NCBI GenBank assembly: GCA_045540175.1
Contig: JAZQGU010000033.1
Coordinates: 18,539 to 82,538, forward strand
Length of the DNA: 64,000 bases
Direction of reading: 5' to 3'
Source: Eubacteriales bacterium
GTDB lineage: Bacteria; Bacillota; Clostridia; Oscillospirales; CAG-272
The notes beneath the pieces were generated by a model, which searched no databases, had not been told where the DNA came from, and saw nothing but the letters and a program-made list of their open reading frames with translations. Shown here piece after piece: positions 2,987 through 63,590 of this stretch. Position 1 is the first letter of the stretch. Each line of letters starts with the position of its first letter. Position numbers and translations under genes: made by a program.

Positions 2987-4000
2987 ATGAAGAAAAGAAG
3001 CGTTGGTTTGGTCGTGCTTCTCTCTCTGCTCGTTATCGTCATAATCTTTTACGCTGTCATTTCGAACGCTATGAAGGATAGCGGAAAGGGCGATTCGGAC
3101 GGCGGAGACGGAGAAAAATTATATATCGACAAGCAGGCTGACGACGTAGTCAAGCTGACCTACCGCACGGGAAGCACGGAATTTACCGTTCAGAAAAGCG
3201 GAAGCATCTACGTTCTTGCCGAGGACGAGGATTTCCCTCTCGATACGACGACGGTAAAATTTATGCTCAACGCCGCCGCCCGGATATCCTATCAGAGAAG
3301 GATAAATCCCGAGGGTAACGATCTGAGCGAATACGGTCTTAACGACCCTGAGGCGGTCATTGATATTTCCTATGACGACGGTGCGCGTCTGACTCTCACA
3401 GTCGGAAATTATAACGCATATTCCGAGGCGTATTACTGCACGACCGGAGACGGATTCGTCTACCTTATCGGCGGTCAGTTCTCGGAGGCGTTCTCCTACA
3501 AGTATGCAGACCTGATTCTGCACGACCGCGTCACCACTCCCCAGTACGGCTTCTCGTCCGTCACCAAGATCGAGATAACGAGCGGAAATAAGCGCGCGTT
3601 CTACGAGCTTGTCGGCGGAGAAGACGGCGTCTGGATGAAAAACGGTGAAAACGGTGAGTTCACTTATGAAGCGATGAATATTTATAATGAGCTTTACAAG
3701 CTGAACCCGAGCGAATGGATCGCCTATAACGTAGAAACAGACGAGGCCTTCGACGGCTTCGGACTCAAAGATCCCGACATTCGCGTCGTATTTACCCACA
3801 CCGAAATCGAACTGATCGAAAACGACGGCTCGTCGCCAGTCGAAAAGACCCACGAGCGTCAGACCGCATTTCTTATCGGTTCCCCCACCGACGAGGGAGA
3901 CGAACACGATATCAAGCGTTATTTCGCCTTCGGCGGCGGAAGCATAATCTATATTATGCACGAATCCGATTTTACAAATACCATGAACGCGGTAAAGTAA
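2987..4000 (+). CDS. DUF4340-like membrane-anchored protein
   Basis: 337 aa from ATG 2987, 1 nt after the upstream stop. The ORF-track start 2933 lies inside the upstream gene. MKKRSVGLVVLLSLLVIVIIFYAV is an N-terminal anchor. Fourth member of the usual ABC/GldG gene set. Confidence 0.6.
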   Translation: MKKRSVGLVVLLSLLVIVIIFYAVISNAMKDSGKGDSDGGDGEKLYIDKQADDVVKLTYRTGSTEFTVQKSGSIYVLAEDEDFPLDTTTVKFMLNAAARISYQRRINPEGNDLSEYGLNDPEAVIDISYDDGARLTLTVGNYNAYSEAYYCTTGDGFVYLIGGQFSEAFSYKYADLILHDRVTTPQYGFSSVTKIEITSGNKRAFYELVGGEDGVWMKNGENGEFTYEAMNIYNELYKLNPSEWIAYNVETDEAFDGFGLKDPDIRVVFTHTEIELIENDGSSPVEKTHERQTAFLIGSPTDEGDEHDIKRYFAFGGGSIIYIMHESDFTNTMNAVK

Positions 4001-4012
4001 GTATATAAAGCT

Positions 4013-4049
4013 AAAACTGCCCGAGCGAAATTCCGCTCGGGCAGTTTTT
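4013..4049. terminator. Bidirectional intrinsic terminator between convergent genes
   Basis: AAAA-CTGCCCGAGCG-aaattc-CGCTCGGGCAG-TTTTT. Confidence 0.85.
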
Positions 4050-4055
4050 ATTCAG

Positions 4056-5075
4056 TTATTTAACTCCGAACTCGAACGCCGTTTCGGTGAAATACGGATG
4101 CTCGGGGTCTATATAGCACTGCGGCATATAAGGACGGTTCGGGGTGTTCGGGCTGAACTGCGTTTCAAGGCAGAAGGCGTGGAGGGGTCTTTGCGGAACT
4201 CCGCCCTTGAAGAGCGTCGGACCGTTCATAAATTCCGCCGTGTAGAGCTGAACCGCGGGAAGATCCGTGTATACCTTCATGGTTCTTCCGCTTTCGGGGT
4301 CGCAGGCTTCCGCCGCAAGGCGCATCTTTCCGATCTCGCCCTTAAGCTGGAAGGAATGATCGTAGGGCTGAGCGATCTTTCTCATGGTTCTGAAATCGAA
4401 AGCCGTTCCGCTCACCTCCGTCGGGTAGCCGAGGGGAATGAGCTTGTCGTCGAGATCGTCGTAGGTATCGGCGTTTATCATAAGCTCCTGGTCCATTACC
4501 GAGCCGCCGTCGTAGCCGTTAAGGTTGAAATAAGCGTGGTTCGTCATATTGAGGACGGTCTTCATATCGGTCTCCGCCTCGTAGCGGATAGAAAGGACGT
4601 TATCGTCGTCCCAGGTATACGTAACCTTTACGTTAAGGTTTCCGGGATAACCCTCGTCGAGATGGGGCGAGAAGAGGGTGAGAATTACGCTGTCGCTGTC
4701 TTCGTTTTCGACAGCCTCGCTCTCCCAGACTCGGCGGTTGAAGCCCGCAAGTCCGCCGTGGAGGTGCCAGCGTCCGACCTCGTTATTATTTATCTTATAG
4801 AAGGTTCCGTCGATCTCAAAGCCGCCGCCTGCGATTCGGTTGCCGTAGCGTCCGATAAGCGCGCCGGTATGGGAGCCGCGGTCGTCGAAATAATCCTTTA
4901 CGGTGTCAAATCCGCAGACAACGTCGGCAAGTACTCCGTTCTTATCGGGAACCTTGACGCTCTGAAGGATTCCGCCCCAGGTTATAACCGTTGCGGACGC
5001 ACCGTTTTTGTTTGTCATTGTGTAAGAGTAGATGTCTTTTCCGACAAAGCGGTCGAAAACGCTTTTTGTAATCAT
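4056..5075 (-). CDS. galM: Aldose 1-epimerase (galactose mutarotase)
   Basis: 339 aa from ATG 5075, preceded by AGGAGG. Motifs HLHGG, TNHAYFNL and FCLETQ are typical of mutarotases. The ORF-track N-terminal extension to 5426 runs through a repeat element. Confidence 0.85.
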   Translation of the reverse strand: MITKSVFDRFVGKDIYSYTMTNKNGASATVITWGGILQSVKVPDKNGVLADVVCGFDTVKDYFDDRGSHTGALIGRYGNRIAGGGFEIDGTFYKINNNEVGRWHLHGGLAGFNRRVWESEAVENEDSDSVILTLFSPHLDEGYPGNLNVKVTYTWDDDNVLSIRYEAETDMKTVLNMTNHAYFNLNGYDGGSVMDQELMINADTYDDLDDKLIPLGYPTEVSGTAFDFRTMRKIAQPYDHSFQLKGEIGKMRLAAEACDPESGRTMKVYTDLPAVQLYTAEFMNGPTLFKGGVPQRPLHAFCLETQFSPNTPNRPYMPQCYIDPEHPYFTETAFEFGVK

Positions 5076-20827: not shown

Positions 20828-22069
20828 TTAATAAAGCGGGTACTTTTCGCAGAGCTTCTTGACTTCGTTTCTGATATATTCGGCAGAATTTTCGAAGTCG
20901 GATGCCGTGAGCTTGATAAGCTTACCGATAGTTACCATATCCTCTTCCTTGAGGCCTCTTGTCGTTGCAGCGGGAGTTCCTACTCTTATACCGCTTGTGA
21001 TGAAGGGACTCTGAGGATCGTTCGGGATAGCGTTCTTATTTGCCGTGATATGTACCTCGTCGAGGCGGTGCTCCATTTCCTTACCCGTTACGTTAAAGTT
21101 ACGGAGGTCAACGAGCATAAGGTGGTTATCGGTTCCGCCCGACACGAGGTCGAAGCCTTCTTCGATCAGCGTATCTGCAAGAACCTTTGCATTCTTCACG
21201 ATCTGCTCCTGATATGCCTTGAACTCTGGCTTGAGTGCTTCACCGAAGCAGACTGCCTTTGCGGCGATGATGTGGAGAAGCGGACCGCCCTGGATTCCGG
21301 GGAAGATCGCCTTATCTATCTTCTTTGCAAGCTCCTCGCGGCAGAGGATGAGTCCTCCGCGGGGGCCGCGAAGCGTTTTGTGAGTGGTCGTGGTAACGAC
21401 GTCGGCGTAAGGAACGGGGTTCGGATGAAGTCCTGCCGCTACAAGTCCTGCGATATGAGCCATATCTACCATCAGGTATGCTCCGCACTTCTTTGCGATC
21501 TTTCCCATTCTCTCAAAGTCGATAACGCGGGGATATGCCGACGCACCTGCGACGATGAGCTTAGGCTTGACCTCCATTGCCTGCGCTTCGAGCTTATCGT
21601 AGTCGATAAGGTGGGTTTCGGGGTCAACACCGTAGGAAACGAAATTATAATAAAGACCCGAAATGTTCACGGGGCTACCGTGTGTGAGGTGTCCTCCGTC
21701 TGCAAGGGACATACCCATAACGGTATCTCCTGCCTGAAGAAGCGCAACGTATACTGCCGTATTTGCCTGCGAACCGCTATGCGGCTGTACGTTTGCGTGC
21801 TCTGCGCCGAAGAGCTTCTTTGCGCGCTCGCGTGCGATATCTTCAACAACGTCGACCTTTTCACATCCGCCGTAGTAACGCTTTCCGGGATATCCCTCTG
21901 CGTATTTGTTCGTAAGAATCGTTCCTGCCGCAGCCATTACTGCAGGGGATACGAAGTTTTCCGATGCGATAAGCTCGATGCCGTCGCACTGACGCTCGAA
22001 TTCGGCTTCTATTGCCTTTCCGACCTCGGGATCGCATTCTGTAAGATAGCGGAGTGTTTCTTCAACCAT
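20828..22069 (-). CDS. glyA: Serine hydroxymethyltransferase
   Basis: 413 aa from ATG 22069 with GAGGA RBS; the ORF-track start is a TTG 21 nt upstream. [27 protein letters not shown] (PLP-Lys block). Confidence 0.95.
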
Positions 22070-22141: not shown

Positions 22142-22232
22142 TAAGTTCCCGGGAAAAATTTGTTATCATACCGGGCAACGTTTTGGAGATTTTGACGGGG
22201 TTTTTTGCCCTCAACAACAAAAACACGGCTTT

Positions 22233-22534
22233 AGTAGGTTGAGCTTATGAATAAGCTCAACCTACTTTGAAATCAATTTGCTCCGCAAATTGGTGAAATA
22301 CGACTTGCGTCGTATGAAATAGGCTTTGCCTATGAAATATTTTCTTCGAAAATGTTAAGGATTAAAAATGATCCGTTGCATTTTGCAACGGATCTTTTTT
22401 TACCATAACATGCCCGAAGGGCATATATCATATTGCGATAGCAATATTTCATATTTCCGCAAGGAAATATTTCACATTACCGTCAGGTAATATATCACTG
22501 TGGTTTCGATAATCCCTTATCGCAACCACTTTTT
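22233..22534. repeat. Array of 11 consecutive distinct hairpins joined by TGAAAT / ATTTCA heptamers
   Basis: Stems were verified base by base. H1 22233-22266, H2 22274-22292, H3 22298-22315, H4 22319-22333, H5 22339-22353, H6 22364-22399, H7 22410-22424, H8 22430-22447, H9 22451-22470, H10 22476-22491, H11 22500-22529. Confidence 0.9.
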
Positions 22535-22547
22535 GCCCTGCTTTGAC

Positions 22548-22760
22548 TTATACTATGATCGCATCTGCGAGCTGCGGGTCTATGCTGTACCTGCCGTCCT
22601 TTATCGAGACTGTACAAGCTCCCTTGCGGCGAGATATGACCGTGATCGGCTCGCCCTCGTAGCATCCGAGAGAAAAGAGGAACGCTTCAAGCTCCTCGTC
22701 GCCCGTTTCGATTCCTTTGATTATATATTCTACGCCTTCCTCGGCTGTTCTCAGTGTCAT
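22548..22760 (-). CDS. FeoA-domain protein
   Basis: 70 aa from ATG 22760 with GGAG RBS. MTLRTAEEGVEYIIKGIETGDEELEAFLFSLGCYEGEPITVISRR... fits the FeoA SH3-like pattern. No feoB is adjacent. Confidence 0.7.
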   Translation of the reverse strand: MTLRTAEEGVEYIIKGIETGDEELEAFLFSLGCYEGEPITVISRRKGACTVSIKDGRYSIDPQLADAIIV

Positions 22761-22790: not shown

Positions 22791-22806
22791 GTTAGCCTTT
22801 GCTAAC
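22791..22806. promoter_or_regulatory. Candidate metalloregulator operator in the feoA/dtxR divergent spacer
   Basis: Palindrome GTTAGC-cttt-GCTAAC, which resembles the core of DtxR/IdeR-type boxes. Flanked by two copies of TTTT(G)ATCACTTG. Confidence 0.3.
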
Positions 22807-22929: not shown

Positions 22930-23295
22930 ATGGATCTACACGAATCTGCCGAGATGTATCTCGAAACGATATACGTCCTTTCGCAGAACGGAACCGTACG
23001 AAGCATTGACGTCGCTGAGAAAATGGGATACAGCAAGCCCAGCGTCAGCCGTGCCGTCGGGCTTCTCAAGAACGGCGGTTATCTAACCGTTGACCCTGCC
23101 GGAGGGCTTATTCTGACCGACAAGGGTCTCAGCACCGCAAGGAGCATTTTCGAGCGCCACATTGTTTTGACCGATTTTCTTACAAAGGTCGGCGTAAGTG
23201 AGGAAACTGCCGCACTCGACGCCTGCAAGATCGAGCACGTTATCAGCGCCGAAACTCTTGACGCAATTAAAAAATTTACGGAGAGCAACGCATGA
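22930..23295 (+). CDS. DtxR/MntR family metal-dependent transcriptional regulator
   Basis: 121 aa. ESAEMYLETIYVL, a winged HTH (IDVAEKMGYSKPSVSRAVGLLKNGGYL) and the dimerisation helix region. Confidence 0.85.
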   Translation: MDLHESAEMYLETIYVLSQNGTVRSIDVAEKMGYSKPSVSRAVGLLKNGGYLTVDPAGGLILTDKGLSTARSIFERHIVLTDFLTKVGVSEETAALDACKIEHVISAETLDAIKKFTESNA

Positions 23296-56670: not shown

Positions 56671-56679
56671 AATAAAAAA

Positions 56680-56790
56680 TCTTTTTGGGGCGTGGTGAAA
56701 TTCCACACCGGCGGTGACAGTCCGCGAACACTTATGTGCCGAATGGGTGAAACTCCCATACCGACGGTATAGTCCGGATGAGAAAAGAGA
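56680..56790 (+). promoter_or_regulatory. FMN riboswitch (RFN element)
   Basis: GGGGCGTGGTGAAATTCCACACCGGCGGTGACAGTCCGCGAAC...GGGTGAAACTCCCATACCGACGGTATAGTCCGGATGAGAAAAGAG matches the conserved RFN core. Closing helix CTTTT/AAAAG. Confidence 0.85.
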
Positions 56791-56795
56791 ACTGT

Positions 56796-63438: not shown

Positions 63439-63513
63439 TGGTGACCCGTACGAGAATCGAACTCGTGTTACCGCCGTGAAAGGGCGGTGTCTTAGCCGCT
63501 TGACCAACGGGCC
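63439..63513 (-). tRNA. tRNA-Glu: tRNA-Glu (anticodon UUC), CCA encoded
   Basis: The reverse complement GGCCCGTTGGTCAAGCGGCTAAGACACCGCCCTTTCACGGCGGTAACACGAGTTCGATTCTCGTACGGGTCACCA folds as a cloverleaf. Anticodon loop CTTTCAC. Confidence 0.9.
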
Positions 63514-63590
63514 TGGTAGCGGAGATTGGACTTGAACCCATGACCTACCGGGTATGAACCGGTTGCTCTAGCCAACTGAGCTACTCCGCC
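63514..63590 (-). tRNA. tRNA-Met: tRNA-Met (anticodon CAU), CCA encoded
   Basis: The reverse complement is GGCGGAGTAGCTCAGTTGGCTAGAGCAACCGGTTCATACCCGGTAGGTCATGGGTTCAAGTCCAATCTCCGCTACCA. Anticodon loop TTCATAC. One mismatch in the T stem. Met versus Ile2 or initiator identity is not resolved. Confidence 0.85.

Follow-up and report, generated by a model that had tools for sequence, protein, structure and literature searches.

A mirror-symmetric hairpin array between feoA and glyA of a Eubacteriales genome contains two opposed copies of the Gut-1 motif

The spacer between feoA and glyA in Eubacteriales bacterium (assembly GCA_045540175.1) is built almost entirely of short hairpins, and the question raised by this locus is whether such an array is an RNA, a protein-binding site, or a piece of DNA that came from elsewhere. 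The array lies in a stretch of 64,000 nucleotides of contig JAZQGU010000033.1 (positions 18,539 to 82,538, forward strand), which is referred to here as the window and to which coordinates apply unless another locus is named. It consists of two opposed copies of the Gut-1 motif (Rfam RF01706). We favor, with moderate confidence, the reading that it is one complete copy of a mobile, composite extragenic palindromic repeat that carries terminators, has Gut-1 motifs as its halves, and is related in kind to repetitive extragenic palindromes (REPs) and miniature inverted-repeat transposable elements (MITEs).

Covariance-model searches with Rfam 15, in which RF01706 has a gathering score of 50 bits, returned two full-length matches (model positions 1-77) on opposite strands. 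Copy 1 (22265-22343, plus strand, 55.4 bits) comprises hairpins H2, H3 and H4 with four NTGAAAT linkers, and copy 2 (22420-22500, minus strand, 61.7 bits) comprises H10, H9 and H8, whose linkers take the form NTGAWAT when read on the minus strand. The original prediction had recognized no RNA family and no described element with this grammar, and had named a match to a described Rfam family as a finding that would overturn its claim; these scores overturn it, although the array as a whole, which has a dyad, hairpins at its ends and a terminator at its center, does exceed what the literature describes. The Gut-1 consensus has exactly three variable hairpins with GUGAAAU between them, and three variable hairpins with (G)UGAAAU or (G)UGAUAU linkers were found in the window and at 66 related loci. 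Gut-1 was reported by Weinberg et al. (2010, Genome Biol 11:R31; PMC2864571) from 43 representatives, all in human-gut metagenomes, and was rated a probable non-coding RNA ("RNA: Y") on covariation (NUM_COV 18); the supplementary text devotes one sentence to it and gives no function. In the authors' flanked 2010 alignment, GUGAUAU-hairpin units are followed by AUAUCAC-hairpin units, for example in BAAZ01000095.1, so the mirror symmetry is not peculiar to the window; the paper itself makes no mention of this arrangement. A literature search for later studies of Gut-1, or of palindromic repeats linked to tRNAs in these taxa, found none. The window unit agrees with the published motif in its three short variable hairpins and their linkers, in its occurrence in gut Clostridia, and in the terminator hairpin often found just upstream. 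It differs in that the published motif is a 77-nt sequence annotated as a small RNA (sRNA) gene, whereas the window holds a mirror-symmetric unit of about 300 bp, half of it Gut-1, with added terminal and central hairpins.

The whole discrete unit is 318 bp long (22212-22529, no strand assigned) and consists of a 21-nt A-rich lead-in followed by H1 to H11. Its start at 22212 lies 21 nt to the left of the array start noted earlier (22233) and was set by the limits of shared homology and by a direct repeat. All eleven different hairpins described in the original prediction were confirmed by reading of the sequence and given exact coordinates. H1 (22233-22266) is a long terminal hairpin with a stem of 16 bp (15 bp had been given earlier) that is 100% complementary in a repeat search, and its arms, on reading of the sequence, resemble those of H11 in inverted orientation. 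The left set contains H2 (22274-22292, stem CAATTTGC, loop TCC), H3 (22298-22315, stem ATACGAC, loop TTGC), H4 (22319-22333, stem ATAGGC, loop TTT) and, as its fourth hairpin, H5 (22337-22355, stem ATTTTC, loop TTC). The central H6 (22364-22401) has an AAAAAT A-tract, an 11-bp stem and a TTTTTTT T-tract, and resembles a bidirectional intrinsic terminator. The right set starts with its fourth hairpin, H7 (22410-22424, ATGCCC, loop C(GAA)G), and continues with H8 (22430-22447, loop GATA), H9 (22451-22470, loop GCAA) and H10 (22476-22491, loop GTCA). H11 (22500-22529) is the other long terminal hairpin, with a 13-bp stem, one mismatch, loop TCCC, and TTTTT after the stem on the plus strand only.

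The fixed junction heptamers were likewise verified by position, four on the left (TTGAAAT at 22267, GTGAAAT at 22293, ATGAAAT at 22314, ATGAAAT at 22332) and four on the right (ATATCAT at 22425, ATTTCAT at 22446, ATTTCAC at 22469, ATATCAC at 22492), and the junction-to-junction spacing is 21-26 bp. The mirror symmetry about H6 that had been proposed is borne out by the repeat search, which found a higher-order inverted repeat (22331-22368 / 22395-22432) centered on this hairpin. A G+C-rich hairpin with a T run, as in an intrinsic terminator, was present on both strands at H6, which was also scored as terminator-like on both strands by terminator prediction; for H11 the TTTTT was identified by reading, on the plus strand. 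The terminator-like character of these two hairpins was thereby upheld, and the nine other hairpins are not terminators. The earlier statement that the array holds no open reading frame (ORF) stands only in substance, as two trivial ORFs of 40 amino acids overlap the array region.

The hairpin array is real and far beyond chance. A TGAAAT triple at 12-24 nt spacing occurs only here in the 64 kb (0.00 expected from shuffles), the fold z-scores against shuffles were -14.4 for the plus strand and -13.7 for the minus strand, and a grammar scanner reported exactly two arrays in the window, at 22268-22338 (plus) and 22425-22497 (minus). An assembly artefact was ruled out because the architecture recurs in dozens of independent assemblies, and also in Sanger metagenome contigs of 2007 that are included in the original Gut-1 alignment.

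A pattern scan of species-representative genomes yielded at least 120 loci, and all counts for the family given here are among the matches listed. Genuine arrays were present in 66 of the 120 loci listed, after removal of one false positive from Bacteroidales (L132), where an unrelated 23-bp tandem repeat had fooled the scanner. The hosts are nearly all metagenome-assembled genomes (MAGs) from human and ruminant guts, labeled Acutalibacteraceae, Oscillospiraceae, Clostridia/Eubacteriales, Faecousia, Limivicinus, Fimenecus, Ruminiclostridium and Christensenella. The 66 loci contain 41 convergent dyads (a plus array followed by a minus array), with halves 26-32 or 48-56 nt apart, and the opposed-pair layout is thus the rule in gut Oscillospirales-type MAGs. 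All elements are intergenic. Two or three elements occur within 8 kb at L138, L148, L164, L177 and L145, and several contigs come from one MAG; the 64-kb window has one unit only.

When the elements of the common subtype were oriented and aligned, the A-half read TGAAAT-A1-GTGAAAT-A2-GTGAAAT-A3-GTGAAAT and was followed by a center segment, and the B-half read B1-ATTTCA-B2-ATTTCA-B3-ATTTCA-B4-ATTTCA and was followed by TTG, an A-tract, a hairpin and a T-tract. Rfam Gut-1 corresponds to the B-half of this subtype on the opposite strand; B-halves score 60-80 bits, and A-halves exceed the RF01706 threshold only sometimes. The center segment directly repeats the 5' arm of B4, and each of the two is complementary to the 3' arm of B4 together with the last linker. 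The window copy is a member of the Gut-1 family, of a subtype with a central terminator and terminal hairpins.

Several comparisons bear on whether the unit is bounded and dispersed. By BLAST, window positions 22213-22527 align at 87% identity with positions 255-569 of L134, a locus in a Clostridia MAG of roe deer origin, and outside this segment the flanks are unrelated; the 8-kb L134 locus has no glyA or feoA homologue, and the ORFs adjoining its unit are unrelated. The differences concentrate in the loops, of which the first and last bases are kept: H5 differs in its loop only, H6 has an identical stem and a changed loop, H7 is identical, and H11 shows two compensatory double substitutions and one repaired mismatch. 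The L134 unit sits between the two arms of a terminator-like hairpin (GCCACCC...GGGTGGC) and its end is without a T-tract. In the window, the unit is flanked by two copies of the 10-bp direct repeat TTTTTGCCCT (22202-22211 and 22530-22539, no strand assigned), a possible target-site duplication; the right copy abuts the foot of H11, and its T run doubles as the T-tract of H11 on the plus strand. This repeat bounds almost exactly the segment shared with L134, and repeats of at least 10 nt arose in 2 of 2000 shuffles of the flanks.

A comparison of orthologous glyA-feoA spacers, which had been suggested with the original prediction, revealed presence and absence of the unit. The relatives of GlyA form a graded series from 98% down to 89% identity. 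At L321 (GCA_054297265.1), where GlyA is 98% identical, the gene order GtrA, DtxR, FeoA, GlyA, RNase_T is the same and no array is present; the feoA-glyA spacer measures 207 bp there and 475 bp in the window. Both the 3' end of feoA and the promoter and leader of glyA can be aligned at about 95%, and between these parts L321 has a plain terminator, AAAAACACGG...CCGTGTTTT, so that the alignment shows what reads as an insertion at the feoA terminator. In the remaining close GlyA relatives the genes upstream differ and arrays are absent. A metagenome scan with GlyA gave 80 loci, the best at 89% identity, in which synteny was not conserved and arrays were absent, and hence no empty-site test; exact look-up of the window GlyA and FeoA returned no record. 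With absence at an orthologous site (L321) and a copy in an unrelated context (L134), the unit shows the presence/absence polymorphism of a MITE, and it is a discrete, dispersed palindromic module that is present or absent per site.

The same was seen elsewhere in the family. L138 and L148 each have two copies per contig, 95.5% and 96.8% identical by BLAST, that form a sharply bounded unit of about 215 bp running from the terminator A-tract to ...ATTTCACT; the flanks of the copies are unrelated, one copy lies behind a tRNA gene and the other does not, and no flanking direct repeat was evident at the copies of either locus. Elements in different species-level MAGs share 84-93% identity, limited to the element body, with alignment edges within a few nt of the first and last linkers, and these elements lie behind different tRNAs. 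Over all comparisons, copies at unrelated sites are 84-99% identical and have sharp edges.

Family elements settle beside intrinsic terminators, above all directly behind tRNA genes. With tRNAs located by ARAGORN, a tRNA 3' end faced the B-end at approximately 26 of 37 dyad loci (about 70%), an element followed directly after 37 of the 64 terminal tRNAs of the listed loci, and the RNase P RNA gene preceded one element. The A-end faces another terminator or the promoter of the next gene. About 30 of the 37 tRNA-linked elements have the junction CCA-G-AAAAAA-hairpin-TTTTTT-CAA-TGAAAT. Behind the 27 terminal tRNAs that lack an element, the native terminators likewise start immediately after CCA, although the G is missing; a position close to CCA is thus a native property of these genomes. 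Terminator hairpins joined to elements show homology between different tRNAs and between species (for example GCACTTGC, GCACACATTTGTC, GACTTGTC and GACGATTGC), from which it follows that the terminator moves along with the element. At L141 and L162 the element lies inside a Gly-Arg-[element]-His tRNA cluster, with tRNA-His beginning 10-20 nt past the A-end. The window itself has two tRNA genes at 63442-63590 (minus strand), the last of which, tRNA-Glu, is followed by a native terminator right after CCA (ccaAAATGAAAAGAGGG...) without a Gut-1 element; not every tRNA of this genome carries one.

Whether the conserved object is RNA or DNA was addressed through stems, loops, promoters and covariation, and all four point to DNA. 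Among segments between linkers, 269 of 294 (91%) are perfect Watson-Crick palindromes around a 3- or 4-nt loop, and the 1628 stem pairs include only 11 G-T, 9 A-C and 8 other mismatches. Counts of G-U versus A-C gave no wobble excess on either strand and thus no choice of strand; in minimum free energy folds, G-U pairs made up 0.7% (TGAWAT strand) and 0.5% (ATWTCA strand), compared with 10.7% in 78 tRNAs of the same loci. The loops are strand-asymmetric: on the ATTTCAC strand C(GAA)G is the commonest, together with C(GCA)G, C(GTA)G, C(GGA)G, C(GCAA)G, C(GTAA)G and C(GTTA)G. The strand with these stable loops is the reverse of that in the Rfam orientation and points away from the center in both halves. 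Judged by their sequence, the loops are of the GCGNAGC / GCGNNAGC type of DNA mini-hairpin, which is known from the priming sites of phage G4 and RSF1010 ssiA and from the N4 hairpin promoters (PMC13037366). No positionally conserved promoter was found on either strand of 37 elements, only weak 9/12 matches arising from the linkers themselves, and the left window copy has neither a predicted promoter nor an upstream gene on the plus strand. Alignment of unlike palindromes by itself produces apparent covariation, and the 2010 criterion therefore cannot distinguish RNA from DNA. The near-absence of G-U pairs, the DNA mini-hairpin loops, the lack of a promoter and the presence/absence pattern fit DNA palindromes better than an RNA gene.

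Under the favored reading, the element would be a DNA-level, multi-copy module, present or absent per site, in gut Clostridia (Oscillospirales-type MAGs). Its unit would be the heptamer ATTTCAC plus a perfect mini-palindrome with a C(GNA)G or C(GNNA)G loop on the same strand; several units would make up one set, and two sets would face each other. Hairpins of terminator type would be built in, with one (H6) at the center of the window subtype and long hairpins (H1, H11) at its two ends. The window unit sits where its close relative L321 has the feoA terminator. Spread probably occurs by duplicative insertion, in which a single-stranded DNA hairpin intermediate or a trans-acting transposase may take part, and the 10-bp repeat at the flanks is a hint of transposition through staggered cuts, with the enzyme provided in trans. 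The heptamer and mini-hairpin units are probably the features under selection, because stems and linkers are conserved and the loop ends are constrained. They would be recognized by the mobilizing machinery, plausibly in single-stranded DNA because of the loop chemistry.

The effect on the host would resemble that of REPs and of bacterial interspersed mosaic elements (BIMEs). Transcripts of feoA would start at the promoter-like site 22842-22814, pass H11 and H10-H7, and stop at H6 (ATTTTT on the minus strand), so that the mRNA would gain a 3' untranslated region (UTR) of about 185 nt made of stable hairpins and ending at H6. H6 would also halt transcription on the plus strand, and H5-H1 with the following T run, which precede the glyA promoter (22141-22113), would together with H6 insulate against read-through in both directions. 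L321 terminates with one ordinary hairpin, and the module is therefore dispensable.

A number of observations weigh against a mobile DNA element. L321 also differs around the site, and insertion cannot be separated there from replacement of the terminator apex; a clear direct repeat is present at one site only, that of L134 being merely degenerate; and the loci searched (approximately 0.8 Mb) revealed neither a transposase or recombinase nor an autonomous partner. Some insertions are common to different species, as at L141 and L162, and element sequences are conserved between species, both of which fit a selected function, possibly at the RNA level. The elements inside these tRNA clusters must be transcribed if the clusters are operons. 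In 229 of 339 units the G of GTGAAAT could extend the stem by a G-U pair on the TGAAAT strand. Finally, RNAalifold, besides finding the hairpins, reported a 10-bp long-range helix in the common subtype that covaries strongly, with double substitutions numbering 16 of 33 in three pairs and almost no breaks. A scan of the window copy for a long-range helix of this kind gave no match, and reading of the sequence revealed only a vestigial TTACC/GGTAA pairing.

The elements inside tRNA clusters, the possible G-U pairs and the covarying helix favor the foremost alternative, that Gut-1 is a structured sRNA or a cis-acting RNA. Two convergent copies would then share the terminator H6, with the right copy in the feoA 3' UTR, and, much as in the CsrB/RsmZ decoys, the repeated single-stranded GUGAAAU between hairpins might serve to bind, or to titrate, a nuclease or an RNA-binding protein. 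Both halves exceed the gathering threshold, the motif was rated as RNA on its covariation (PMC2864571), and the window copies both point at H6, which offers each strand a T-tract. Against this, no conserved promoter accompanies the elements, and the left copy has neither a predicted promoter nor a plus-strand gene before it; G-U pairs are nearly absent from the stems on either strand, at a level far from that of the tRNAs; covariation is expected whenever unrelated palindromes are aligned; and the stable GNA/GNNA loops are on the wrong strand for the Rfam orientation. The sharply bounded, near-identical copies carry no promoter either, and a 98% relative does without the unit, which is therefore dispensable; this alternative is considered unlikely.

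The loop chemistry would also suit a signal in single-stranded DNA adopted by the host, namely a priming or restart site or a hairpin promoter, with mini-hairpins forming on the lagging-strand template and the opposed sets serving a fork arriving from either direction, by analogy with the G4-type, ssiA and N4 sites. The prevailing loops, C(GNA)G and C(GNNA)G, lie in every case on the strand running outward from the center; mini-hairpins of this kind mark primase/ssi sites and N4 promoters (PMC13037366); and perfect palindromes are suited to a function in DNA. This idea has a slim chance of being correct: the elements are dispensable between close relatives, and it gives no reason to expect them beside terminators and the 3' ends of tRNAs.

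Also considered was a retroelement resembling a short interspersed element. A plus-strand transcript, running from AGUGAAAU into the U-tract at the built-in terminator, would be copied into cDNA with priming from the CCA-3'OH of a mature tRNA or from the 3' end of RNase P RNA, and the hybrid cDNA would recombine at the gene for the stable RNA. Hybrid cDNAs are also the route by which retroplasmids of Neurospora integrate at tRNA genes. The edges of the L138/L148 unit coincide with the putative transcript (AGTGAAAT to the end of the T-tract), and the CCA-G-AAAAAA junction is constant behind many tRNAs and RNase P RNA. PF05635 is the family of 23S rRNA intervening-sequence proteins, and clustering of neighboring ORFs at the 66 loci found no transposase-like neighbor and only one recurrent gene, which encodes a four-helix-bundle protein of this family (7 of 66 loci). 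These genes (115-123 amino acids; L125, L146, L154, L188, L201, L208, L225) begin 15-55 bp past the A-end and read away from it, as in L225:5202-5573, and the order is always stable-RNA gene, element, PF05635 gene; the window element has no PF05635 gene beside it. The family includes Avd, the accessory protein of diversity-generating retroelements (PMC10053308), and Avd-like proteins would help a reverse transcriptase in trans. The proposal is nevertheless highly improbable, in that the same clustering found no reverse transcriptase near any element, native tRNA terminators likewise begin right after CCA, the window subtype is not at a tRNA and has a 10-bp flanking repeat typical of DNA transposition, the L134 unit ends without a T-tract, and the unit carries no promoter.

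Barely tenable is an array of double-stranded DNA binding sites, in which TGAAAT hexamers about two helical turns apart (the junction spacing of 21-26 bp) would bind a regulator or nucleoid protein, such as the repressor of the DtxR family encoded 400 bp away or a ParB/Noc-like protein: H1 half-sites (TAGGTTGAGC / GCTCAACCTA) are, on reading, faintly similar to a DtxR/IdeR box, but a DtxR/IdeR operator is a palindrome of about 19 bp with abutting half-sites of the TTAGGTTAGCCTAACCTAA type, associated with iron or manganese genes, and those of H1 are 10 bp apart, and the perfect palindromes with constrained loop ends are left unexplained. ATTTCAC equals box A of P1 parS. The link to the adjacent regulator suggested in the original prediction is unsupported, since the unit, H1 included, recurs in the 8-kb L134 locus without feoA or glyA, its relatives are mostly behind tRNA genes, and a better operator candidate exists at 22791-22806. 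Type III antitoxin repeats, clustered regularly interspaced short palindromic repeats (CRISPR), integron attC sites and parS were ruled out on unit length, non-identical repeats or lack of full sites; the constant part is 7 nt long and the variable parts are palindromes of 9-21 nt, which is not the make-up of a CRISPR array, where identical repeats of 24-48 nt alternate with unique spacers of about 30 nt.

The mobile composite repeat was compared with known systems. In the REP, BIME and REPIN (REP doublet forming hairpins) elements of Proteobacteria, which are mobilized by RAYT transposases (REP-associated tyrosine transposases, Y1 HUH), short extragenic palindromes likewise have a conserved flanking oligonucleotide and are arranged as inverted pairs or clusters at gene 3' ends and between convergent genes. 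A high copy number, action as terminators or protectors of mRNA 3' ends, and reliance on single-stranded DNA hairpins would probably be shared as well. The combination of ATTTCAC with a perfect palindrome in 91% of segments, the 41 inverted dyads and the intergenic location agree with such palindromes. The oligonucleotide differs, however (ATTTCAC here, GTAG there), the hosts here are Clostridia, a unit contains 7-11 different mini-palindromes instead of copies of one REP, the preference for tRNA 3' ends is strong, and no recurrent transposase neighbor was found in the 66 loci, the genomes not having been searched for RAYT. With MITEs, non-autonomous derivatives of DDE transposons, the family shares a length of 200-320 bp, a non-coding and dispersed nature, sharp edges, several short-motif copies per end, inverted outermost motifs (TGAAAT...ATTTCA; H1 versus H11) and, in the window, the 10-bp flanking direct repeat, a candidate target-site duplication. 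It departs from them, including those with Tn7/Mu-like ends of multiple transposase-binding repeats, in that the spacers are perfect hairpins with constrained loops, which MITE ends need not have, in the absence of a transposase-coding partner in about 0.8 Mb of loci, and in a flanking repeat that is clear only once. The DNA mini-hairpins of the phage G4 origin, RSF1010 ssiA and the N4 early promoters have the same strand-specific C-GNA-G and C-GNNA-G chemistry, but are single sites on phage or plasmid single-stranded DNA, whereas here chromosomal arrays of 3-5 occur in two opposed sets with a fixed heptamer between hairpins.

Relative to the accessible literature, the apparently new features are the complete module with its mirror symmetry, the hosts in which it occurs, its linkage to terminators and to the 3' ends of tRNAs, the pair of filled and empty sites, and the evidence that an Rfam "sRNA" behaves like a mobile family of DNA palindromes. 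For 15 years Gut-1 had neither function nor organismal context; the present analysis places it in Oscillospirales-type gut bacteria and shows the 77-nt motif to be half of a larger mirror-symmetric module. The Rfam entry may be a mobile DNA palindrome family, as the statistics argue. If so, it would warn against taking covariation in aligned palindromes as evidence for RNA, Clostridia would gain a REP-like system, and the modules would be a natural source of compact bidirectional terminators or insulators. A bolder generalization is put forward only tentatively: Gut-1 as a whole might be a formerly unrecognized bacterial mobile element of DNA mini-hairpins, not an sRNA gene, that carries terminators, homes to terminators and to the 3' ends of tRNA and RNase P RNA genes, and is moved by a single-stranded DNA hairpin enzyme, a DDE transposase acting in trans, or stable-RNA-primed reverse transcription with Avd-like helpers.

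The genes next to the unit were annotated from their translations with Pfam. The stand-alone feoA (22548-22760, minus strand, 70 amino acids; Pfam FeoA) has a promoter-like site at 22842-22814 on the minus strand by promoter scan. H1 was rejected as its native terminator, as this hairpin belongs to the unit shared with L134. The downstream neighbor, glyA (20828-22069, minus strand; Pfam SHMT), encodes serine hydroxymethyltransferase, and its promoter-like site (22141-22113, minus strand) lies outside the unit; the glyA promoter and leader are conserved in relatives without the unit. The DtxR-family gene (22930-23295, plus strand) is divergent from feoA. A perfect palindrome, GTTAGC-CTTT-GCTAAC, at 22791-22806, just downstream of the feoA -10 box, is by its sequence a likelier candidate operator for this regulator than anything in the array. 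At L168:1450-1560 (an Acutalibacteraceae MAG), a degenerate half-element with a terminator lies just upstream of a glyA homologue (68% amino acid identity) in the same orientation as in the window, which may be either a coincidence or an old shared site.

Variant elements were also noted. L164b and L026 have GATAT linkers throughout. L124:3400-3950 is a tandem pair of variant elements, one half of which has (A/G)CATCAT linkers in place of ATTTCAC, and its center holds a bidirectional terminator like H6 in the window. At L177:1230-1660, three tandem B-halves surround one A-half, with junctions at the center and B4 repeat, positions that suggest recombination between these repeats. L145, like the window, has long hairpins at both ends of its Gut-1-type element. 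The entire L145 contig is 3884 bp long, with a 141-bp terminal overlap (k141 assembler) inside this element; a small plasmid was ruled out, given that the contig encodes ordinary chromosomal genes and that its overlap consists of the repeat, and the apparent circle probably reflects two identical elements flanking 3.7 kb. Such repeats can thus break or circularize MAG assemblies.

A viral scan with GTGAWAT x3 found real elements in only 3 of 120 loci (L026, L081, L110), the matches being mostly unrelated tandem repeats. On the viral or prophage contig L081 (IMG/VR; 3700-4480), a G+C-rich pair of GATAT-type arrays flanks a small ORF and has the center motif GTTTCGGGACCTGCGGTCGGCATTATA in common with the element at L145:110-140. 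Among 33 typical elements (alignment A1, columns 106 and 209), the base that follows the final linker of the A-half is correlated with its counterpart behind the final linker of the B-half (G-G in 13, A-A in 14, G/A exceptions in 3, other bases in 3), so that a perfect TGAAAT plus arm sequence occurs on one strand or the other, never both. Elsewhere in the window, an FMN riboswitch (RF00050, 107.9 bits) was identified at 56677-56793 on the plus strand.

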